Shown here one piece after another: positions 1 through 36,229 of a stretch of DNA of 64,000 bases. Both the position numbers and the translations under genes were made by a program. The stretch is from Candidatus Omnitrophota bacterium (lineage in GTDB: Bacteria; Omnitrophota; Gorgyraeia; Gygaellales; Profunditerraquicolaceae), in NCBI GenBank assembly GCA_026387355.1, contig JAPLLW010000011.1, forward strand, positions 9,504-73,503. Direction: 5' to 3'. The notes below the pieces were generated by a model. The model was not told where the DNA came from, did not search any database, and saw only the letters and a list, made by a program, of their open reading frames with translations. Every line of letters begins with the position of its first letter. Positions within the stretch are counted from its first letter, which is position 1.

Positions 1-603
1 GGACAATTCCCTGGCAAAGTCTTCGTCTTCAACTAATCTTATTCCATTAGTATTAAGCATCAAATGACGTATTTTCTTAGACTTAGCCAGTTCTATTATT
101 TTGAATATTTCAGGATGCAAGGTCGGCTCGCCACCACTGATTTGCAATACCTCGGGATGGCCTTCATAACGCACATATTGATTCAACATAAAATCTATTG
201 TCTCTAAATCTAGGAATTTATGCCCCTGCGCCTGCGCATAGCAGCTTGCGCAGCAAAGATTACAGTCATCAGTTACTTCAAGTAGAGCCAAACAGGTATG
301 CTGCTGGTGGTTAGGACAAATTCCGCAATCATCGGGACACCCTAGCTTTATTACGCTTCCGTATTCAAGTGGGCTTTGCCCCGGCTTATTAAAGGCTAAG
401 CTATGCGTGTACATATTAATATCAGAAGAGATTAGTGCTTCGAATTCTCCGTGCTCAAAACAACGTTTAAACATATACACTTTATCATTCCTAACCCTGA
501 TCTGAGCATCAAGGGTTTTCTTGCACACAGGACAGATTGAACGTGTTAATTCTAAGAAAATATAATCTTTTTCTTTTTGTGTTTGTTGGATAATTTTAGT
601 CAT
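1..603 (-). CDS. radical SAM enzyme, N-terminal 201 aa (3' end lies beyond the window edge). Cys-rich N-terminal extension, then a CxxxCxxC cluster motif
   Basis: Own translation of the reverse complement: MTKIIQQTQKEKDYIFLELTRSICPVCKK...CPDDCGICPNHQQHTCLALLEVTDDCNLCCASCYAQAQG...ISGGEPTLHPEIF. CNLCCASC is the CxxxCxxC motif and GGEPTL is the glycine-rich SAM motif. Absent from the ORF track because the stop is outside the window. Confidence 0.75.
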   Translation of the reverse strand, partial: MTKIIQQTQKEKDYIFLELTRSICPVCKKTLDAQIRVRNDKVYMFKRCFEHGEFEALISSDINMYTHSLAFNKPGQSPLEYGSVIKLGCPDDCGICPNHQQHTCLALLEVTDDCNLCCASCYAQAQGHKFLDLETIDFMLNQYVRYEGHPEVLQISGGEPTLHPEIFKIIELAKSKKIRHLMLNTNGIRLVEDEDFARELS

Positions 604-27261: not shown

Positions 27262-27300
27262 AAAAATAGGCCCAGTATATTCTACAAGGCCTATTTTTAT
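27262..27300 (-). terminator. cspA terminator (AATAGGCC…GGCCTATT followed by TTTTTATTT)
   Basis: Perfect 8-bp stem, U-run. Confidence 0.6.
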
Positions 27301-27312
27301 TTACTACTTAGG

Positions 27313-27513
27313 TTATAACTTGTTTACCTTTGTAGCTTGCTCACCCTTAGGACCTTTTTCAATCTCAAATTCAACTTCCTGGCCCTCTTCTAAAGTCTTA
27401 TAGCCATCACCCTGTATAGCAGTATGATGTACGAATACATCATTACCGTTCTCAGGAGTAATAAACCCATAACCCTTTTGGTTGGAAAACCACTTTACTT
27501 TACCTTTTACCAT
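27313..27513 (-). CDS. cspA: cold-shock protein
   Basis: [21 protein letters not shown]…VFVHH (RNP1/RNP2 motifs). 66 aa. Confidence 0.9.
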
Positions 27514-27681
27514 TTACTGTACTTCCTCCTTCCTTGTTCCCGCTGATTCGTTTAAACTCTAGTCGGGATCCCGTTTCACCGGGATAAATTTTAGTAAACC
27601 AAGATAACAAAAAACCGTAAGGCGCGTCACTCTTTCTCCTCACGGTTCAAGCGTTCAACTACCTTGTTTACTACTGTGGTA
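27514..27681 (-). promoter_or_regulatory. long (~165 nt) structured 5' UTR of cspA
   Basis: Distance from the predicted TSS to the ATG. Established knowledge: csp mRNAs carry long thermoregulatory leaders. Confidence 0.45.
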
Positions 27682-27709
27682 AGTATACACTAAATTCTGC
27701 TATTGTCAA
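27682..27709 (-). promoter_or_regulatory. sigma70-like promoter of cspA (TTGACA-16 nt-TATACT)
   Basis: Read in minus sense: TTGACAatagcagaatttagtgTATACT. Confidence 0.5.
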
Positions 27710-27769: not shown

Positions 27770-27797
27770 ACTTACGACTTACCACTTACGACTTACG
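27770..27797. repeat. 4 tandem copies of the heptamer ACTTACG/ACTTACC
   Basis: Seen directly. Overlaps the 3' end of CDS 27786-28082. Confidence 0.6.
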
Positions 27798-28082
27798 ACT
27801 AATATCTATACCCTTAAGATTATAGTAACCCAACACCTTTACCTTCGCCTTAGATTTACTTACAAGCCAATCGTGGCGCTTTTTCATAAAACCCTCATGG
27901 CTCTCCTGCTTATCCCATTCATATACCGAGGCATACTGGTTCTTATAGCCATAGCGCTTCATGGTAAAATAGGCCCTAAAACCCTTTACCTTCTTGGCGA
28001 AGCTAGCCCAAATCAAGCTATCTTTACGGTACTTAGTAACTTCTTTAGGCTGGATTTTGAATAAGACGGTATGTATAAACAT
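27786..28082 (-). CDS. antibiotic-biosynthesis-monooxygenase (ABM)-like small protein
   Basis: About 98 aa. W…ES..H pattern (YEWDKQESHEGFMKKRH) typical of the ferredoxin-like ABM fold. Confidence 0.45.
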   Translation of the reverse strand: MFIHTVLFKIQPKEVTKYRKDSLIWASFAKKVKGFRAYFTMKRYGYKNQYASVYEWDKQESHEGFMKKRHDWLVSKSKAKVKVLGYYNLKGIDISRKS

Positions 28083-28086
28083 CTAC

Positions 28087-28653
28087 CTAGAATATCTCTT
28101 TGAAGCGGGAATTTAATTTAGAATAGATAATCGTTGCAACAAGCGCCTTTAAGATATCTCCTACAATAAAAGGAATAAAACCTAAGGTAAGTGCATTTAA
28201 AAGACTGCACCTGAAAAGCTGTTTAATCCACAGGCTTCCACAAACCAAAATCAATATATCCGCTACACAAAATAGCAAGAAAGTAGTCGAGAAATCACTT
28301 TTAAAATATTTCAAGAAAGTCCCCAGGAAAATAGCCGCAAAGATAAAACCGAATATATAACCTGAGGTTGGACCAGAAAGATAAAGCAGGCCGCTACCGC
28401 TTCCCGTAAACAAAGGAATACCAGCAATTCCTAATACGGCATAACATATTTGCGAAAATCCCCCTAGCCTTGAACCTAAAAATGCTCCGGATAATAAAAC
28501 GAAAAGTGTTTGCAGTGTTATAGGCACTGGCGTAAAGAAAAGAGGAATGCGCACAAAGGCCCCTAATGCCGTCAATATAACAAATACTGCCACTGCAATT
28601 ACTTTACATAAATCTTTATTTATGATTATTTCTTTTTTTAAGATAGCTTCCAT
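28087..28653 (-). CDS. bioY: biotin transporter, ECF S-component BioY
   Basis: PITLQTLFVLLSGAFLG motif. Six TM helices. Confidence 0.75.
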   Translation of the reverse strand: MEAILKKEIIINKDLCKVIAVAVFVILTALGAFVRIPLFFTPVPITLQTLFVLLSGAFLGSRLGGFSQICYAVLGIAGIPLFTGSGSGLLYLSGPTSGYIFGFIFAAIFLGTFLKYFKSDFSTTFLLFCVADILILVCGSLWIKQLFRCSLLNALTLGFIPFIVGDILKALVATIIYSKLNSRFKEIF

Positions 28654-28740
28654 TATTCCTCCCTGCCTACTTAAAACCGATAGGCGTAATTAGTTTGCTT
28701 AGTTAGTAATTATACCTAAAATTTATAGAAAGTAAAGCTT

Positions 28741-30561
28741 CTACCATTGAAATTTTAATCCCGTTTTAATCCATCTTCCCGGCTGGAGGACCCCTCCTAC
28801 TTCGCTGTATTGCGTATTGGTGAAATTATCCACGCTTACAAATGGCTCTAAAGAAAAATCCTTTGTCTCAAATTTTTTTCCTAAATAGATATTCCCGACA
28901 AAGTAATTATCGCTGTAATACCTGTCGTTATAAGAAAACTGCCAATTTAATTTTAACCCGCAAACTAAAGTATATATATCAAGGAGATACTGGTGTTTAA
29001 GTATATCTAACGCATATTTTGACTGAAATCCATTTGCCTTTCTGTTCGCATACATATAATTATATGAAAACCCTACTTTTGGTACTTTTAAGAATTTAAA
29101 GTCGGCATTGGGATTGATCTTGAAATTGAATTCTAGCCCGCTATAATCCACTCTCCCCAGATTCGTCGCCTGCCAAGGCTGAGTTGATACGCTGCGCGTC
29201 CAATCAATCAAATTATACCCGCGACGCAAAAATCCTGCTAACCCAGTTTCTAGAAATTCATTTGCAAAATCCAGCCCTAATCTAAAATTATAGGAATATT
29301 CTTCTTTTAGATTTGGATTTCCTTTGTTTCCGGGGTCGGAATAATACAGTTCAGTAAATGAGGGTAGTCTGTACGACCTGGAAACAGCTCCGTTTATTTT
29401 CAATTTATTATCTATCAAATAATACCCTAGCCCCAAATTAAATGACTCCTGCCAGTTCCATTTCTGATAATAATCAACCCCGAAATTAAAATTAGACCTT
29501 AACCTCCCCGCAGGATCAAGGGAAAAACCCAGAGTAGCGCCTTCATGGCGCCTTGAATGCTTACCTAAATTAGTAGAGTTTATCTCTTCTTCTACGATAT
29601 TAAACCCCAATGATGCTTTTCCGTATTTAACCGGACGCTCAAAATTGGAATCAAAACCATAGACATAAGTAGTGTGGTAATTTACCGAAGTCGGGTTATT
29701 TCTTTGTAAGATAAACTTATCATTATGCTTCCTTAAATAGAGACTTGTCTTAAAGAAACCTGGATTTAATTTAAACTTAGCCCCTGTTTTATAAAAGTAA
29801 ATTTCTGTGTGCTCTTCCTCTTCGGGGTATAAATTGGAGTAGAAACTATCCGCGCCAAAATCTTTTTTCTGATAACCGGCTAAGAGATCTAAATCAGCAA
29901 ATTCATAATCTTTAGTCAGGTATAAAGAAGCGGTTTGATTCTCAAAATCAGTGTTCGGCACTGCAGCCTGGGCTTTCTTATGGTCAAAAGAAAACCTCCC
30001 TGAAATTACCTCAGATGGGAAAGTCAGAGATAGCGCCTGTCCGAACAAAGCATGCTCTCCGAATAAAGCTTCTAAATTGAATTTTTTTTGCGTAGGCTTC
30101 TTGACCACCATATTAACACTTCCGGCAAAAGCACCGGCGCCGTATAAAGAAGAATCCCCGATTTTGTCGACATTAATTCTTTCGACATCAAAAATTGTTA
30201 AAGGAATATCCAGGTTGTGGTGGCCTGTTTGAGGATCCATAACATTTATCCCGTCAATAGCTACTGCTACTTCTTCAAAGTTAGAGCCATTAAGCGATAA
30301 GTCGCCTTGAATTCCCATCGGAGAGCGATTACGCAGATCTATTCCCGGGACATAGTTAAGAACATCGTAGGTAAAAGTGGCATCGCCTTCACCAATGCCC
30401 TCTATATTAAAGCTTTCAAAGCCTTCTTGGCTCTGGGTCTTTACCACAATCTTATCCAAAGCATAAGGCTCGGCAGAGAAGAGAGGAGTTAAAAACAGAA
30501 AAAACGCTAAGATAATCCCATATATTATTTTCATTTTTAGAATAAAAAAACTCCAGCCCAT
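28741..30561 (-). CDS. TonB-dependent outer-membrane receptor
   Basis: Plug and beta-barrel. C-terminal …GLKFQW aromatic terminus. The start is ambiguous. ATG 30534 gives a classic MKIIYG… signal peptide. Track ATG 30561 lies inside the hairpin. Confidence 0.7.
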   Translation of the reverse strand: MGWSFFILKMKIIYGIILAFFLFLTPLFSAEPYALDKIVVKTQSQEGFESFNIEGIGEGDATFTYDVLNYVPGIDLRNRSPMGIQGDLSLNGSNFEEVAVAIDGINVMDPQTGHHNLDIPLTIFDVERINVDKIGDSSLYGAGAFAGSVNMVVKKPTQKKFNLEALFGEHALFGQALSLTFPSEVISGRFSFDHKKAQAAVPNTDFENQTASLYLTKDYEFADLDLLAGYQKKDFGADSFYSNLYPEEEEHTEIYFYKTGAKFKLNPGFFKTSLYLRKHNDKFILQRNNPTSVNYHTTYVYGFDSNFERPVKYGKASLGFNIVEEEINSTNLGKHSRRHEGATLGFSLDPAGRLRSNFNFGVDYYQKWNWQESFNLGLGYYLIDNKLKINGAVSRSYRLPSFTELYYSDPGNKGNPNLKEEYSYNFRLGLDFANEFLETGLAGFLRRGYNLIDWTRSVSTQPWQATNLGRVDYSGLEFNFKINPNADFKFLKVPKVGFSYNYMYANRKANGFQSKYALDILKHQYLLDIYTLVCGLKLNWQFSYNDRYYSDNYFVGNIYLGKKFETKDFSLEPFVSVDNFTNTQYSEVGGVLQPGRWIKTGLKFQW

Positions 30562-30579
30562 ATTATATATGGGCTGGAG
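30544..30579 (-). terminator. hairpin (13-bp perfect stem CTCCAGCCCATAT/ATATGGGCTGGAG) plus U-run after birA. Overlaps the possible start codon of the TonB receptor
   Basis: Seen directly. May act as terminator or attenuator. Confidence 0.5.
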
Positions 30580-30582
30580 CCA

Positions 30583-30614
30583 TTGTCAACTATTCTAGTA
30601 TGCTTGGTTTACAA
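30583..30614. promoter_or_regulatory. BirA-box-like palindrome ATTGTCAAC-N16-GTTTACAAT
   Basis: Matches the half-site consensus TTGTAAAC / GTTTACAA of biotin-repressor operators. Lies between birA and the TonB-receptor/bioY genes. Confidence 0.5.
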
Positions 30615-30645
30615 TTGCAAGGAAAGATTAACTACTGGTAGAAAA

Positions 30646-31605
30646 TTACCTGCAGTGGACTACATCGCCGGTCATAACCTTCTGGGTTAAACCGGAATCT
30701 TTTCTTATTAATAATCCTCCGTCTTTATCAATATCTACTGCCTCTCCCTCAATATGTTTACTCTGGCAATAAACCTTAACCCTTCGGCCTAAGGTAAGAT
30801 TATTCTGGCGCCATTTATCAATAATAATAGAGCTACCTTTCTTGGCTAAAAGTAAATAATTTGCTTCGAGCCTGCGTAGTATCTCCTGCAACAACTCCAG
30901 ACGGCTTACCTCTTCTTTCTTCTGCTCCCTCAAAGATGTAGCGCCGCTAATCAAAGACTTCTTATCATTATTCACGTTTATGCCGATACCGATATTTACA
31001 AAATTAACTTTATCAGTTTCAGCGCTTATCTCTGTAAGTATCCCGCCGAGCTTCTTACTGTGTACTAAGATATCATTCGGCCATTTTATCTGCGCATCGA
31101 TACCTGCAACTTCTTTTACTGCTTCGCAAATACTAATTGCAGCCATGAATGTTAATATCGATGCCTGCGCAGGCAAAAGATCGGGCCGCAGTATCAAAGA
31201 AAAATAAAGCCCCTTGTATTTCGGAGAAGACCAGATTCTCCCTAATCTACCCCTGCCTTTATTTTGCGCCTCGGCTAAAATCATTGTGCCTTCACTTGCG
31301 CCTTTTATCCCTAATTGCATAGCCATATCCATGGTAGAATTTAGAGAATCGAAATAAAGAATTTTTCTACCTAAAACCTTTGTATCCAAGCCATTCTTAA
31401 CCTCAAAATCAAACAACCTATCGGGACTAGATTCCAGACGATATCCGAGATGGGGAACTGCGGCGATATTGTAACCTAGATCCTTTAGCTCCTGGATATG
31501 CTTCCAGAGCGCCTGACGGCTTATTTTAAAATGGCTGCTTATCTCTTCGCCGGATATATAATCTTTTTCCCTTTTTAATAGTTCGATTATCTTTTCATCG
31601 ATCAT
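30646..31605 (-). CDS. birA: bifunctional biotin-protein ligase / biotin operon repressor
   Basis: N-terminal HTH (ISGEEISSHFKISRQALWKHIQELKDLGY) plus ligase motif GRGRLGRIWSSP. Confidence 0.85.
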   Translation of the reverse strand: MIDEKIIELLKREKDYISGEEISSHFKISRQALWKHIQELKDLGYNIAAVPHLGYRLESSPDRLFDFEVKNGLDTKVLGRKILYFDSLNSTMDMAMQLGIKGASEGTMILAEAQNKGRGRLGRIWSSPKYKGLYFSLILRPDLLPAQASILTFMAAISICEAVKEVAGIDAQIKWPNDILVHSKKLGGILTEISAETDKVNFVNIGIGINVNNDKKSLISGATSLREQKKEEVSRLELLQEILRRLEANYLLLAKKGSSIIIDKWRQNNLTLGRRVKVYCQSKHIEGEAVDIDKDGGLLIRKDSGLTQKVMTGDVVHCR

Positions 31606-32636
31606 TTCTTCAGATACTCCTCAAACTTGGCCCAAAAAGGATCTACGCCGGGATGCTTAAGCTTATACTCTTTGTTTTTCTCAAAAACACAGATGCCTTT
31701 ATTCTTTTCAACCACTTCTCCGGCTACGCTGGCAGGAATACCCTCTTTAATTAAAGCACTAACCACGGCCTGAGCCTTATTCTTCTTAACGGTTGCAAGT
31801 AATGTCCCTTCGCTTATCGAATTATAAGGATTGATATCAAAACATGCGCAGGTTTTCTTTACTTCATCCTGAACTACTATCTTATCCAGATAAATATGCA
31901 TACCCACCTGACTATGCATAGCTATCTCATAAAGCCCACCGAATATGCCGCATTCAGTAGCATCATGCATAGCAGTCACTCCTCCTACTCTAGCGACAAT
32001 CTGCGCGTCTTTTACCGTCGACATCTGATAATAAACATCTTGGGCAGGCTTGACAAATTTCTTGCCATATTTAGCCTCCAAAAACTTTGGGAAATAAGCC
32101 GCCAATAATCCTGTGGTTTCAATAGCCGGCCCCTTAGAGATAACAATCACATCCCCGATTTTTGCCTGAGGCATAATCAGTTTTTCTTTTTTATCTATAC
32201 CAAATACAGTCGCACCACCTACAAATGGGTAATTACACCCCGCATATCTAGCAGTATGCCCGGTGACAACGCTTATACCTAAAGCCTTACATTCGCTATC
32301 TACTACACCCCACATCCTGCTTAGCTCATTTTCAGTCATCTCTGGAGGAAGATTTAAATCAACAGCCAAGTATCTTGGTCTTATACCACTGACTGCTACG
32401 TCGCTAGCTAAGATATGCACTGCAAACCAAGCAGCTTTTTCTATGCCTAGCTCTTTTGCGATATAGAAAGGGTCGGTTGATAAAACCATCGCCTTATCGC
32501 CTAAATCAATTACCCCAAAATCAACCCCGGATTGAGGCTTTAGTATGACGGAAGAATCTTTTCTCCCTAATCTAGGATAAATTACTTTATTAAAAAATTC
32601 CGGATTGATTTTACCGAGTTTTGGCAGCTTACTCAT
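31602..32636 (-). CDS. PurM-superfamily (AIR-synthase-related / HypE-like) protein of unclear function
   Basis: PurM N/C domains (VDFGVIDLGDKAMVLSTDPF…FAVHILASDVAVSGIRP). No C-terminal Cys, so not canonical HypE or SelD. Confidence 0.5.
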   Translation of the reverse strand: MSKLPKLGKINPEFFNKVIYPRLGRKDSSVILKPQSGVDFGVIDLGDKAMVLSTDPFYIAKELGIEKAAWFAVHILASDVAVSGIRPRYLAVDLNLPPEMTENELSRMWGVVDSECKALGISVVTGHTARYAGCNYPFVGGATVFGIDKKEKLIMPQAKIGDVIVISKGPAIETTGLLAAYFPKFLEAKYGKKFVKPAQDVYYQMSTVKDAQIVARVGGVTAMHDATECGIFGGLYEIAMHSQVGMHIYLDKIVVQDEVKKTCACFDINPYNSISEGTLLATVKKNKAQAVVSALIKEGIPASVAGEVVEKNKGICVFEKNKEYKLKHPGVDPFWAKFEEYLKK

Positions 32637-33796
32637 TTTTTATCGTATAGCGGAGACATGGCACGTAACTTATGCACAACCTTAGGTAGGTTTTCTAAAA
32701 GATAATCAATATCTGACTCTTTGGTCCATCTACCCATAGTAATTCTCACTGAGCCATGGGCAGTCTCGTGGTCAAGACCGATAGCTAAAAGCACATGGGA
32801 TGGCTCTAAGGAACTGGATGTGCAGGCAGATCCGGTAGAAACAGCTATACCCAACATATCTAGACTCAAGAGAATGGATTCGCCTTCGATATATTTTATT
32901 GAAAAATTAACATTGTTTGGCAATCTCTGCGTAGGGTGGCCGTTAAGCATAACATCGCTAATCTTCTTGGGTATTTCTTTAATTAATCTATCTCTTAAGG
33001 CAATCTGAAATTCAGCCTCTTTTTTCATATTCTTACTGCACAGCTCTATTGCCTTGCTTAAACCTACGATACCTGGAATATTATGAGTGGATGCCCTCCT
33101 GCCCTTCTCCTGATCCCCTCCCTGCAGGAATTTTCCTAAACGCGTACCTTTTCTTATAAACAAAGCGCCTACGCCTTTTGGCCCGTAAAATTTATGGCCT
33201 GAAATAGAAAGCAGGTCAACGTTTAAATTATTTACATCAACCGGTATGTGCCCTGCAGTCTGCACTGCATCAGAGTGAAAACATACTCCTTTTGCCTTGG
33301 CAATCTTTCCAATTTCAGCAATTGGCTGAATAGTCCCGATCTCATTATTCGCATGCATTATAGAGATGAGGATGGTTTTGTCGGTAATCGCCTTTTTAAC
33401 ATCTTCAGCAGAGACAATTCCCTGTTTATCAACTCCTAGATAACTAATTTTAAAACCTTTTTTCTCAAGAACTGCGCATGGTTCGCTTATAGCGTGATGC
33501 TCGATCTTAGAAGTGATAATATGGTTGCCTTTATCGCCTAAAGCCTCGGCTACCCCGAATATCGCGTTGTTATCAGATTCTGTGCCTCCAGAGCTAAATA
33601 TAATTTCATCCGGTTTTGCCCCTAGAAATTCAGCAACATTATGACGGCTATCTTCAAGCGCCTTCTTCGCCTCTTGTCCGTATGCATGTAAACTAGAAGC
33701 ATTGCCAAACTTCTCAAAGAAATAAGGCTCCATGGACTTGATCACTTCAGGATCAGTAGGTGAAGTTGCTGCGTAATCTAAGTATACCCTTTTCAT
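32633..33796 (-). CDS. cysteine desulfurase (NifS/IscS class)
   Basis: PLP lysine in SGHKFYGPKG. Catalytic loop STGSACTSSS. Confidence 0.85.
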   Translation of the reverse strand: MKRVYLDYAATSPTDPEVIKSMEPYFFEKFGNASSLHAYGQEAKKALEDSRHNVAEFLGAKPDEIIFSSGGTESDNNAIFGVAEALGDKGNHIITSKIEHHAISEPCAVLEKKGFKISYLGVDKQGIVSAEDVKKAITDKTILISIMHANNEIGTIQPIAEIGKIAKAKGVCFHSDAVQTAGHIPVDVNNLNVDLLSISGHKFYGPKGVGALFIRKGTRLGKFLQGGDQEKGRRASTHNIPGIVGLSKAIELCSKNMKKEAEFQIALRDRLIKEIPKKISDVMLNGHPTQRLPNNVNFSIKYIEGESILLSLDMLGIAVSTGSACTSSSLEPSHVLLAIGLDHETAHGSVRITMGRWTKESDIDYLLENLPKVVHKLRAMSPLYDKK

Positions 33797-34599
33797 CTGA
33801 TAAGCCCCTCGTTCATACTCCCTGTACGATAACCCTCTAAATCTATAGTGATATAATTATATCCCAATTTCTTTAATTTGTCGATTATGCTTTTTCTTTT
33901 ATCTATCAAATCAGGGATACCCTTTTTCCCCACTTCTATGCGGCATAAATTCTCGTAATCCCTGACTCTGACATGATCAAAACCAATTGTTCTTAGATAA
34001 GTTTCTGCTTTGTTAATCCGCTCAAGAATAATTGTAGAGATGCGCCTGCCATAAGGAATACGCGAAGCAAGACAAGCTAAAGCCGGCTTATCCCAAGTAA
34101 TCAGACCTAACTTTCTACTTAATTTGCGAATCTCGTCTTTATTAAGGTCCACTTTCTGGAGCGGAGATAGCACCTTGAGTTCTTTTTTTGCTTCATTCCC
34201 GGGCCTAAAATCAGATTTATCCGACGCATTGCTAGCGTCAAATATATACTTAATATTATTCTTTTGCGCGATCGACCATAATTGTGTAAAAAGTTCTTTC
34301 TTACAAAAATAGCAACGCTGGGTAGAATTAGCAATAAACTTTTTGTTATTTAATTCGCGCGTACTAATTACCTTGTGCCTGACTCCAAAACTACGGGCAA
34401 TCCTCTTAGCAAAAACCAATTCCTCTTTAGGGTAAGTAGGAGAATTTGCAGTTACGCCTAGAATCTTGTTTTTTGGAATAACCAAAGAGGCAACCTTTAA
34501 CAAAAAGGCGCTATCCACTCCGCCTGAGAAAGCAATCAGGCAGGAATCATACTTTGAAAGCAACTTTTTAAGTTTATTTAGCTTTTTTGCAAGTTGCAT
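33793..34599 (-). CDS. PP-loop ATPase of the LarE/TIGR00268 family, 3-Cys type
   Basis: PP-loop AFSGGVDSAF. Cys at CYFC and ACLASRIP. Confidence 0.7.
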   Translation of the reverse strand: MQLAKKLNKLKKLLSKYDSCLIAFSGGVDSAFLLKVASLVIPKNKILGVTANSPTYPKEELVFAKRIARSFGVRHKVISTRELNNKKFIANSTQRCYFCKKELFTQLWSIAQKNNIKYIFDASNASDKSDFRPGNEAKKELKVLSPLQKVDLNKDEIRKLSRKLGLITWDKPALACLASRIPYGRRISTIILERINKAETYLRTIGFDHVRVRDYENLCRIEVGKKGIPDLIDKRKSIIDKLKKLGYNYITIDLEGYRTGSMNEGLIR

Positions 34600-34605
34600 T
34601 AATTA

Positions 34606-35013
34606 TCAGAAATGTACTTCCATGGCGCGCGGCGGGCAGAGCTTTACGCAAAGTTCGCAGGCGATGCATTTCTTATTATCGAATGAAATTTCCCGTGTTT
34701 TAGGATCAACTATTAAAGCCTGTGTAGGACAAATCGGCACGCAAACACCGCAATTAGTACACCTCTCTTCATTTCTAATAACATCCTGACTTAAAGGTTG
34801 GATGCGCACGCCGCAAGATTTCAAATATTCAATACCCTTATCAAAATTCTCGCGCTTGCCCGTTAATTCCAAAACCATGAGTCCTTCTTCTTGCGGAGTT
34901 ACAAAAGCTTTAAGGATATTAAATTGTAAATCGAGCTCCTTAACCAGCTTATAAATAATCGGCTGATTAACCAATCGATGAGGAAAATGCAGAACTATTC
35001 TTTTAGAAACCAT
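34606..35013 (-). CDS. NIL-domain / 2x[4Fe-4S] ferredoxin protein (homocysteine biosynthesis partner, MA1822-like)
   Basis: N-terminal NIL-like domain. CTNCGVCVPICP and CIACELCVKLCP. Confidence 0.7.
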   Translation of the reverse strand: MVSKRIVLHFPHRLVNQPIIYKLVKELDLQFNILKAFVTPQEEGLMVLELTGKRENFDKGIEYLKSCGVRIQPLSQDVIRNEERCTNCGVCVPICPTQALIVDPKTREISFDNKKCIACELCVKLCPPRAMEVHF

Positions 35014-35014
35014 A

Positions 35015-36229
35015 TCACTCCTCTTTCTGTAATATCGGCCTCTCCTTGAGCAGCTTAAAACTATACCCGGAATCTGCCGCAGGGAGCTTTGCCACTGGTT
35101 CAGTTAATTCAAAATCACCTTTTTTAATCCAAGACTTTAATTCTTCGGATATTTTAACTGCCTTGGAATAACTAGAAAGGTTTCCCGTAGGAACCTCTTT
35201 ACCTTGAATAGTTATCTTGCCGGACTTTAATTGTTCATAGCTAGCCTCTCCGAGTGAACCTGGAATAACCTGCGGATAATTCTGGCTATAATCCACAATA
35301 GGCGCGTATATATCTTTATCCTTAGCTGCGGCATGCTGAATAACTTCTTCGTCTAGAACCGGAATCGGCACACCTATACCGACGATAAGCGTAACTCCGT
35401 AACCAAGCATACTTGTACCCACCAAATATTGTGACTTCATCTGTTTCAGGTCTCCGATAACCGAAAGAGTACCTCCGGGAACCTTAGTCGTTCCATTCTC
35501 TCTACGCGGTACTCCGGGATTATGCTGCGTCCCCTGCCAGGCAACAAAACCTATTCCTCCACCTAAGAAAATCTTAGTGCCTATACCAATAGTTTTATAA
35601 TACGGGTCCTTGAGTAGCGGAGAGAGTTGACCGGCCGAACAATAATTAGCATTACCAAGATTCGGCTTAAGCATCCCTAGATAAGTATAAATCGGCTTAT
35701 CCGATAAATTTACCGCAATATTATAGTTTTGATAGGCATTACGCATATTGAATAATACTGCCTCATTCAAATCTTTGATATTAAGCAGAGTCTCTAACTT
35801 TCTACGCGGATAGCAATCAGTACCGTAAGCAGTAGCATCAAGCCGCACATCTTTACCTGCGACAATATCTTCAATTACATGTGCGCCGCCGTATTTAAAT
35901 TCTCCGGGATAAACTTTATTACGCGGATCATCATCCGGAATGGCTGTTGCGCCCATATAAATATCCACTGCGGCAAACCCGGTATACGCAGGCACATCGT
36001 TAAGCGTACAGGTTCCTCCGCCGATTTTTATACGCGGCTTAGTATGCCCAATATTAAAATATGCGCCACTTGAACACATAGGACCGAATGTCCCGGTAGT
36101 AACAACATCTACCTCCTGCGCAACCTTCTTGACCCCTTTCTTCTCAACAAGGTCTATCACTTCCTCGGCAGTAACTACAACTACCTGCCCTTTTCTTATT
36201 TTCTCGTTAATCTCTTTTATCGTGCGCAT
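35015..36229 (-). CDS. DUF39/COG1900 homocysteine-biosynthesis enzyme (MA1821-like)
   Basis: 404 aa with a COG1900-like profile (…VVTTGTFGPMCSSGAYFN…GGGTC…). Adjacent to the NIL-ferredoxin. Confidence 0.7.
   Translation of the reverse strand: MRTIKEINEKIRKGQVVVVTAEEVIDLVEKKGVKKVAQEVDVVTTGTFGPMCSSGAYFNIGHTKPRIKIGGGTCTLNDVPAYTGFAAVDIYMGATAIPDDDPRNKVYPGEFKYGGAHVIEDIVAGKDVRLDATAYGTDCYPRRKLETLLNIKDLNEAVLFNMRNAYQNYNIAVNLSDKPIYTYLGMLKPNLGNANYCSAGQLSPLLKDPYYKTIGIGTKIFLGGGIGFVAWQGTQHNPGVPRRENGTTKVPGGTLSVIGDLKQMKSQYLVGTSMLGYGVTLIVGIGVPIPVLDEEVIQHAAAKDKDIYAPIVDYSQNYPQVIPGSLGEASYEQLKSGKITIQGKEVPTGNLSSYSKAVKISEELKSWIKKGDFELTEPVAKLPAADSGYSFKLLKERPILQKEE

Follow-up and report, generated by a model that had tools for sequence, protein, structure and literature searches.

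Analysis of a 64-kb stretch of the genome of a Candidatus Omnitrophota bacterium (contig JAPLLW010000011.1; this whole stretch is the window, to which all window counts refer) suggests that a TonB-dependent receptor of the outer membrane is controlled by the biotin repressor BirA. The genes for BirA, the receptor, the biotin transporter component BioY and a 98-aa open reading frame (ORF) follow one another on the minus strand (Table 1). The 111-nt spacer between birA and the receptor gene consists, on the coding strand, of the birA stop, 30 nt, ATTGTAAACCAAGCATACTAGAATAGTTGACAAT, GGCTCCAGCCCATATATAATATGGGCTGGAGTTTTTTT, ATTCTAAAA and the receptor ATG, and in it a BirA operator, a sigma-70 promoter and an intrinsic terminator are predicted to be superimposed. 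The model that we consider probable is that holo-BirA represses a receptor-bioY unit by occluding the -35 hexamer, that biotin limitation relieves the repression, and that the two proteins together move biotin or a close vitamer. Regulation of the receptor by BirA, proposed in a preliminary description of this DNA, is well supported by comparison among loci: a BirA box is present at 40 of 75 receptor loci, and the same box occurs at bioY, bioB and birA elsewhere.

The comparative-genomics signal for BirA reportedly goes back to Rodionov et al. in 2002. In the window, a palindrome resembling biotin-repressor half-sites had been placed at 30583-30614; the 8-mers TTGTCAAC and GTTTACAA lie exactly there, but with the flanking A/T the site consists of 9-mers that reach one base further at each end (30582-30615). 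It has no mismatch to TTGTAAAC-N16-GTTKACAA on the minus strand and is the sole match to this pattern (at most 2 mismatches) in 64 kb, where 0.02 matches are expected from dinucleotide shuffles; a second, independent scan agrees. In both sequence and spacing the operator conforms to the published BirA consensus, TTGTAAACC-N14/15-GGTTTACAA, a delta-proteobacterial variant of which is exemplified by TTGTcAACC-N14-aGTTgACAA (PMC545781). The resemblance is matched by a DNA-binding domain in BirA itself, the Pfam domains of which are HTH_11 (residues 4-56, E 6e-16), BPL_LplA_LipB and BPL_C; the protein scores 217 bits against the NCBIfam model birA_ligase, matches the birA_repr_reg domain, aligns with the bifunctional BirA models over residues 4-315, and aligns over residues 5-315 with the BirA structures of Staphylococcus aureus and Escherichia coli. 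Pfam likewise bears out the gene identities first described, by which the site is followed by a TonB-dependent receptor (Plug and barrel) and then by BioY. An upstream operon ends with birA, the start of which overlaps the stop of the AIR-synthase-like gene before it; no BirA box lies 5' of this nifS-birA operon within the 64 kb, and the operator is the only site in the window.

The operator recurs upstream of related receptors. An alignment of 27 homologues was used to fetch 77 receptor-relative loci from one-genome-per-species contigs, 75 of them with upstream sequence; a search of those contigs with the single receptor sequence found no relatives. With at most 3 mismatches and a spacer of 14-18 allowed, the 350 nt upstream of the receptor contain a BirA box in the 40 loci mentioned above, against 0.78 expected from the background elsewhere in the same loci. 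At a receptor identity of 45% or more, 27 of 29 loci have the box, and of the remaining two, L014 has its site at 343 nt and L006 a degenerate one; at 34-45% identity, 9 of 13 have it, and one more has a degenerate site (L032); below 34%, it is found in 4 of 33, including Desulfobacteraceae, Desulfuromonadales and Firestonebacteria metagenome-assembled genomes (MAGs). The boxes at these distant receptors (28-30% identity; L049 860-1090, L053 21-52, L069 5787-5818), of which the Desulfobacteraceae MAG has two in tandem, the second adjoining a GGAGG ribosome-binding site, indicate that the association of box and receptor is one that extends beyond Omnitrophota. Relatives in Bacteroidota (26-32% identity) are mostly without a box and are not counted as members.

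Receptors with a box occur in three unrelated gene contexts. Context A, the type found in the window, comprises nifS, an AIRS-like gene, birA, the receptor, in some cases the 98-aa ORF, mnmA and nadA (about 25 loci), with bioY in the window only; context B, seen in four loci and with a perfect palindrome, comprises a trmA-like gene and then the receptor, which faces convergent DUF711/ACT genes; and context C comprises pabB, pabC, the receptor, bioY, an ArnT-like gene and GT2 (six loci and one divergent). The names of the neighbours in contexts B and C come from a reading of representative sequences, and apart from bioY these neighbours are not biotin-related. Linkage of receptor homologues to biotin genes, a point on which the preliminary description had turned, is thus found on three counts: besides the 40 boxes, in 25 loci the receptor has birA directly upstream, and bioY is directly downstream of the receptor, or divergent from it, in 7 loci of a second subfamily, among them L026, in which bioY and the receptor diverge from one shared box. 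Receptor and bioY are adjacent in two receptor subfamilies, which are only 35-38% identical to each other.

The same motif marks known biotin genes. A metagenome scan for exact ATTGTAAAC-N16/17-GTTGACAAT, in which the first downstream gene in the orientation of the motif was scored, found at least 80 loci. Among the matches listed, the first gene is bioY in 45 of 80, biotin synthase (bioB, with Radical_SAM and BATS domains confirmed) in 11, the receptor in 3, birA in 2 and, in 3, a nifS-like gene at the head of a birA operon; no recognisable gene follows in 16, of which 5 have less than 250 nt of downstream sequence. Genes of the biotin regulon, including five birA operons, thus follow at least 64 of the 80 exact motifs among the matches listed, and the check called for in the preliminary description, recurrence of the palindrome before bio genes, has a favourable outcome in the metagenomes. 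In locus L080, the BirA of which is 74% identical to that of the window at its C-terminus, the slot after the birA stop and the box is occupied by bioB, not by the receptor. There (120-300, plus strand) the bioB ATG directly abuts the box and no hairpin is present; BirA may act in this locus on read-through or on another promoter. Boxes also lie upstream of birA, or of the nifS-like gene heading the birA operon, in L083, L137, L153, L133 and L136, a placement that would imply autoregulation of these operons.

Superimposed on the operator and on the adjoining hairpin is a feature absent from the preliminary description, a sigma-70 promoter (TTGACA-N16-TATAAT, 30589..30562) that the promoter scan matched to the consensus at 12 of 12 positions. 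Nearly every orthologous site retains TTGACA or TTTACA in its right half, and a TATAAT-like hexamer follows 16-18 nt past the -35 in nearly all Omnitrophota loci. By the standard spacing of -10 to +1, transcription would start at about 30552-30558, near 30555, roughly 7 nt past the -10 and inside the 3' arm of the hairpin. The alternative start codon ATG 30561, correctly described earlier as overlapping the hairpin, sits within the stem and abuts the -10 hexamer. Transcripts beginning inside the 3' arm therefore could not form the hairpin and would exclude this ATG, and we infer from standard promoter geometry that ATG 30561 is not on the mRNA and that the start codon is ATG 30534. The latter start yields a typical signal peptide (MKIIYGIILAFFLFLTPLFSA) and fits the orthologues, whose alignment begins at residues 1-3 of the 597-aa form. 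In the context C loci (L026, L028, L029, L031, L034, L038 and L047) the receptor ATG lies 6-7 nt past the predicted -10; the mRNAs there would be leaderless, a layout that gives the promoter assignment independent support. The gene caller picked ATG 30561 inside the stem, which counsels caution in the automatic calling of start codons and operons.

The hairpin was first described as a 13-bp perfect stem with a U-run at 30544-30579 that might be the birA terminator, a leader attenuator or both. It is present at those coordinates: the arms CTCCAGCCCATAT and ATATGGGCTGGAG occupy 30551-30579 around a 3-nt loop, 7 T follow at 30550..30544 on the minus strand, the stem grows to 15 pairs with two G-U pairs, 7 pairs are G-C, and the spacer folds with a minimum free energy (MFE) of -36.5 kcal/mol (z = -4.5). 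The 48 nt past the operator have a mean MFE of -16.6 kcal/mol, with a T count of 6.5 in the best 8-nt window, in loci with birA upstream (n = 23), whereas the corresponding values are -6.9 kcal/mol and 4.4 in loci without birA upstream (n = 18; Mann-Whitney p = 2e-5 for each difference). A hairpin with a T-rich tail, with 7-14 pairs of which 5-8 are G-C and with the -10 at the loop, is found in 21 of the 21 loci examined with birA upstream on the same strand. No two of the 21 have the same arm sequences (for example CCAGCCCATA, CCCGGCATT, CCCGCAGCC and CCCTTCCG), compensating changes in the stem preserve the pairing, and the -35 and -10 stay fixed. In loci without birA upstream the hairpin and T-run are weak or largely absent, though the operator and promoter are kept. 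Because the hairpin is kept together with upstream birA, and because its arms differ but compensate, we identify it as the predicted terminator of birA, embedded in the receptor promoter.

An attenuator in the receptor leader, possibly serving also as the birA terminator, would stop receptor transcripts unless some signal blocked folding. The position of the hairpin and U-run between operator and start codon suits such a device, and read-through from birA could in principle add to receptor expression, but we judge it very improbable. Because the -10 of the sole strong promoter is in the loop, transcripts from it would lack the 5' arm; neither an anti-terminator pairing nor a leader peptide is visible in the 30 nt between the birA stop and the operator; no Rfam family is found in the receptor leader at E up to 1, and hence no riboswitch is seen there, a cobalamin riboswitch included; and the loci without upstream birA lose the hairpin and T-run while keeping operator and promoter. 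Of the roles first suggested for the hairpin, that of birA terminator thus gains from the 21 loci with birA upstream, but the -10 in the loop speaks against that of attenuator. We lean, by a little, towards the broader statement that the BirA regulon includes the receptor across the Omnitrophota and, here and there, in Desulfobacterota and Firestonebacteria as well, with a conserved promoter-inside-terminator arrangement in which a 70-bp segment would act as operator, promoter and terminator of the upstream gene.

Behind its signal peptide (MKIIYGIILAFFLFLTPLFSA) the receptor has a TonB-box-like LDKIVVK, as well as a plug and a barrel of 22 strands. Its AlphaFold model (predicted local distance difference test, pLDDT, 82.9; predicted template modelling score, pTM, 0.83) is a plug-in-barrel transporter, and the best match of this model in the PDB is BtuB (2gsk; template modelling score, TM, 0.80; 16% identity). 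In the motif L26-D-K-I29-V-V31-K after the signal peptide, the 27 orthologues all have I29 and nearly all have L26 and V31, and the family profile from position 28 on aligns to BtuB residue 6; we take LDKIVVK to resemble the BtuB TonB box DTLVVTA. The profile of the 27 orthologues matches BtuB, Cir and siderophore receptors weakly in the PDB. No specific curated NCBIfam receptor family is reached: the BtuB models score 66.5 bits (TIGR01779; cut-off 599.7) and 49.9 bits (NF007926; cut-off 836), and all siderophore and haem models are far under their cut-offs. Assignment of the receptor as BtuB was rejected on the distance from the equivalog cut-off and the lack of an Rfam match in the leader, and its assignment as a siderophore or haem receptor of a Fur regulon was rejected on the curated scores, which were not reached, and on the lack of a Fur box (at most 3 mismatches) anywhere in the window. 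Among scored candidates, at least 974 metagenome proteins are related to the receptor with E below 1e-10; the best are 47-60% identical, and those that are named come from Candidatus Omnitrophota MAGs. JGI labels on the homologues read 'iron complex outermembrane receptor protein' or 'vitamin B12 transporter'. In L003, L006 and L018 the gene 3' of the receptor encodes a protein of 260 aa, the N-terminus of which is lipoprotein-like (cluster c36); this protein could be a surface partner of the receptor.

These labels, together with best structural and sequence matches to BtuB, Cir and PirA, would suit an ordinary iron-complex or B12 receptor preceded by an incidental palindrome, that is, an inverted repeat associated with the promoter or the terminator. 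This explanation, already disfavoured, is the one to which we attach the least credence. The palindrome is conserved in sequence and spacing in about 40 loci from several phyla, and the same motif stands before bioY and bioB; the curated-family scores are far under the cut-offs (for BtuB, 66.5 against 599.7 bits); and neither a cobalamin riboswitch in the leader nor a Fur box in the window is present.

BioY of the window is identical to NCBI MCX5700572.1, named BioY, from a Candidatus Omnitrophica MAG. Its gene is solitary, bioMN not being nearby, and begins 87 nt past the receptor stop behind a GGGAGG ribosome-binding site. The 87-nt spacer has no predicted terminator and no BirA box, the latter in agreement with the preliminary description, and bioY is for this reason probably co-transcribed with the receptor. 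A weaker promoter-like site in the same spacer (Table 1) may supply bioY with a basal transcript independent of BirA. Homologues of the 98-aa ORF (cluster c11) lie 3' of the receptor in 9 Omnitrophota loci of the same synteny group, and this ORF is possibly the third and last gene of the receptor-bioY unit.

In the proposed mechanism, transcription of the upstream operon (nifS, the AIRS-like gene and birA) would end at the intrinsic terminator (30581..30544), and the same DNA would hold the receptor promoter, with the right operator half as its -35 and the terminator loop as its -10. Receptor transcripts would start at about 30555, carrying neither the hairpin nor ATG 30561, and would be translated from ATG 30534. 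When biotin is plentiful, a dimer of BirA·biotinyl-5'-AMP would bind the operator, occlude the -35 and repress the receptor-bioY unit, to which the 98-aa ORF may belong; when biotin is scarce, the adenylate would be spent on apo-carboxylase, BirA would leave the DNA, and the receptor and BioY would be made. The TonB-dependent receptor in the outer membrane and BioY in the inner membrane would then work together in scavenging biotin or a closely related vitamer, for instance dethiobiotin. The terminator would insulate the receptor-bioY unit from the upstream operon, and BirA would therefore be its sole input. Sequence and comparison support directly the operator, the promoter, the terminator and its tie to an upstream birA, the retention of the operator before this receptor family and the preference of the motif for biotin genes. 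In this scheme we infer the binding and repression by BirA, the transcription start, the co-transcription of receptor and bioY, the dependence on TonB and the substrate, which may be biotin itself, dethiobiotin, or another vitamer or precursor.

Several points weigh against this model. The host belongs to an uncultured lineage represented by MAGs, and the model is built on sequence comparison; coverage of its genome is 64 kb, which bounds the view of BirA sites, bio genes and TonB-ExbBD. Biotin, at 244 Da, normally crosses through porins, and a dedicated TonB receptor is not obviously needed. No biotin-binding signature can be recognised in the receptor, and the ligands of its nearest solved relatives, at 14-18% identity, are B12, siderophores or haem. 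bioY possesses its own promoter-like site and ribosome-binding site, and its co-regulation with the receptor is therefore proposed rather than observed. RNAalifold, applied to a MAFFT alignment of 20 spacers, gave no consensus hairpin because stems of unequal length fall out of register; per-sequence folds and a table of arms and loops carry the structural argument in its place. Finally, the adjacency of birA and receptor in 25 loci belongs to one conserved synteny block, so that adjacency alone is weak evidence and the argument rests on the box. The presence of the box in contexts B and C and the pairing of receptor with bioY in two subfamilies cannot, on the loci compared, be explained by inherited synteny.

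The main rival to the model concerns the ligand, which might be a vitamer or precursor rather than biotin: the receptor would be regulated by BirA but would carry dethiobiotin, 7-keto-8-aminopelargonic acid or 7,8-diaminopelargonic acid (KAPA/DAPA), pimelate, biocytin or biotinylated peptides, or biotin sulfoxide, and BioY would serve at the inner membrane only for biotin-like molecules. A TonB receptor is usually required where the ligand is scarce or bulky, and most receptor loci (context A) have no bioY nearby. Omnitrophota genomes, in which TonB-domain proteins have been reported (bioRxiv 10.64898/2026.06.07.730766), commonly have partial biotin pathways (bioRxiv 10.64898/2026.06.07.730766; PMC10066038); about half of the complete genomes keep bioB without the full pathway (bioRxiv 10.64898/2026.06.07.730766), and this genotype, which would suit dethiobiotin salvage, is classed as dethiobiotin-using in published reconstructions (table, PMC6593275). 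We regard this alternative as unlikely, though it deserves to be taken seriously: the receptor is repeatedly paired, in two subfamilies, with BioY, a biotin-specific carrier family, and the sequence offers nothing that would discriminate between ligands.

Table 1. Features of the birA-receptor-bioY locus in window coordinates
Feature	Position	Strand	Description
birA	31605..30646	minus	319 aa; bifunctional biotin-protein ligase/repressor with N-terminal winged helix-turn-helix (HTH)
BirA operator (predicted)	30582..30615	palindrome	minus strand reads ATTGTAAAC-N16-GTTGACAAT; 30 nt past the birA stop
-35 hexamer TTGACA	30584..30589	minus	within the right operator half-site; from promoter scan
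-10 hexamer TATAAT	30562..30567	minus	loop and top of the hairpin; from promoter scan
Intrinsic terminator of the birA transcript (predicted)	30544..30581	minus	13-bp perfect stem (15 pairs with G-U), 3-nt loop, T7
TonB-dependent receptor	30534..28741	minus	597 aa from ATG 30534; Pfam Plug and TonB_dep_Rec_b-barrel
Weaker promoter-like site TTTACT-N16-TATAAT	28709..28736	minus	receptor-bioY spacer; 10/12 consensus match, without comparative support
bioY	28653..28087	minus	188 aa; biotin transporter S-component; Pfam BioY PF02632, 132.5 bits, residues 40-181
98-aa ORF	28082..27786	minus	start 4 nt past the bioY stop; sub-threshold DUF4937/ABM-like similarity (E 0.006)

An apparent 860-nt gene-free gap 3' of the receptor-bioY unit is filled by an ORF for a 66-aa cold-shock protein (27513..27313, minus strand) and its long 5' untranslated region (region 27262-27709), which has a sub-threshold match to the Rfam cspA thermoregulator (RF01766), scoring 44.6 bits where the gathering score is 78; a promoter-like site matching the consensus at 11 of 12 positions lies at 27709..27682. 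On the other side (31602-36229, minus strand) lies a tightly packed run of overlapping genes for HcyBio (homocysteine synthesis of the COG1900 type), a NIL-ferredoxin, a PP-loop ATPase, a NifS-like cysteine desulfurase, the AIR-synthase-like protein and BirA; about 20 Omnitrophota loci share this sulfur-trafficking block, with birA, in synteny. In the window, the minus strand carries 46 of the 49 ORFs that are 180 aa or longer, an unusually strong bias for 64 kb.

If the model is correct, biotin would join the short list of vitamins that have an active outer-membrane importer (B12 and thiamine), and at least 974 metagenome proteins now labelled as 'iron complex' or 'B12' receptors would gain a name and a ligand that can be tested. 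The model would have a bearing, too, on the cofactor supply of ultra-small, partly host-dependent Omnitrophota, the biotin pathways of which are often incomplete. The conserved predicted terminator with a -10 in its loop would illustrate how promoters, operators and terminators are overlaid in compact genomes.

The known bacterial routes of biotin uptake are inner-membrane carriers (BioY with its energy-coupling factor (ECF) module, and YigM), and passage across the outer membrane is normally assumed to occur by diffusion through porins. No BirA-regulated or biotin-specific TonB receptor was found in the published literature searched, an earlier mention in the 2002 BirA work being possible. 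A table of the BirA regulon in 94 Proteobacteria lists bio, fab, birA and yigM, with yigM as the sole transporter and no TonB receptor (PMC5343134 supplement), and a delta-proteobacterial BirA study covers bio genes only (PMC545781). A BirA-regulated TonB receptor is thus apparently undescribed, and probably represents an undescribed route of biotin uptake that extends an established theme.

The closest regulatory counterpart is bioO of E. coli, which has the same half-sites and spacing (TTGTAAAC-N16-GTTKACAA here), an operator over a core promoter, and a class II BirA repressor with a winged HTH; repression by promoter occlusion would be shared as well. Unlike bioO, the operator described here would control an outer-membrane receptor and bioY rather than biosynthetic genes; since its right half-site is at once the -35, that half is fixed as GTTGACAAT; and it lies directly after the birA stop, fused to the predicted birA terminator. 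The pairing of a TonB receptor with an inner-membrane vitamin carrier, shut off by a signal derived from the vitamin, is shared with BtuB (B12 riboswitch) and with OMthi-PnuT of Bacteroides (thiamine pyrophosphate (TPP) riboswitch; PMC6977713), but the sensor in the present case would be a protein repressor, BirA, rather than a riboswitch, and the presumed ligand is biotin. BtuB has the closest fold (TM 0.80), at only about 16% identity and with an equivalog score far below the cut-off. PqqU/YncD (PDB 9c4o, 6v81), with a similar plug and barrel, provides a precedent for a TonB receptor of a small, porin-passable cofactor, but the receptor described here is 14-15% identical to it and differs in regulation and ligand. 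BioY itself is of the standard type known from BioY/ECF uptake, and BirA boxes precede bioY in many bacteria, with 45 of 80 cases among the matches listed; the bioY of the window, in contrast, has no box of its own, stands behind the receptor with no bioMN nearby, and presumably borrows the BirA-controlled promoter of the receptor.

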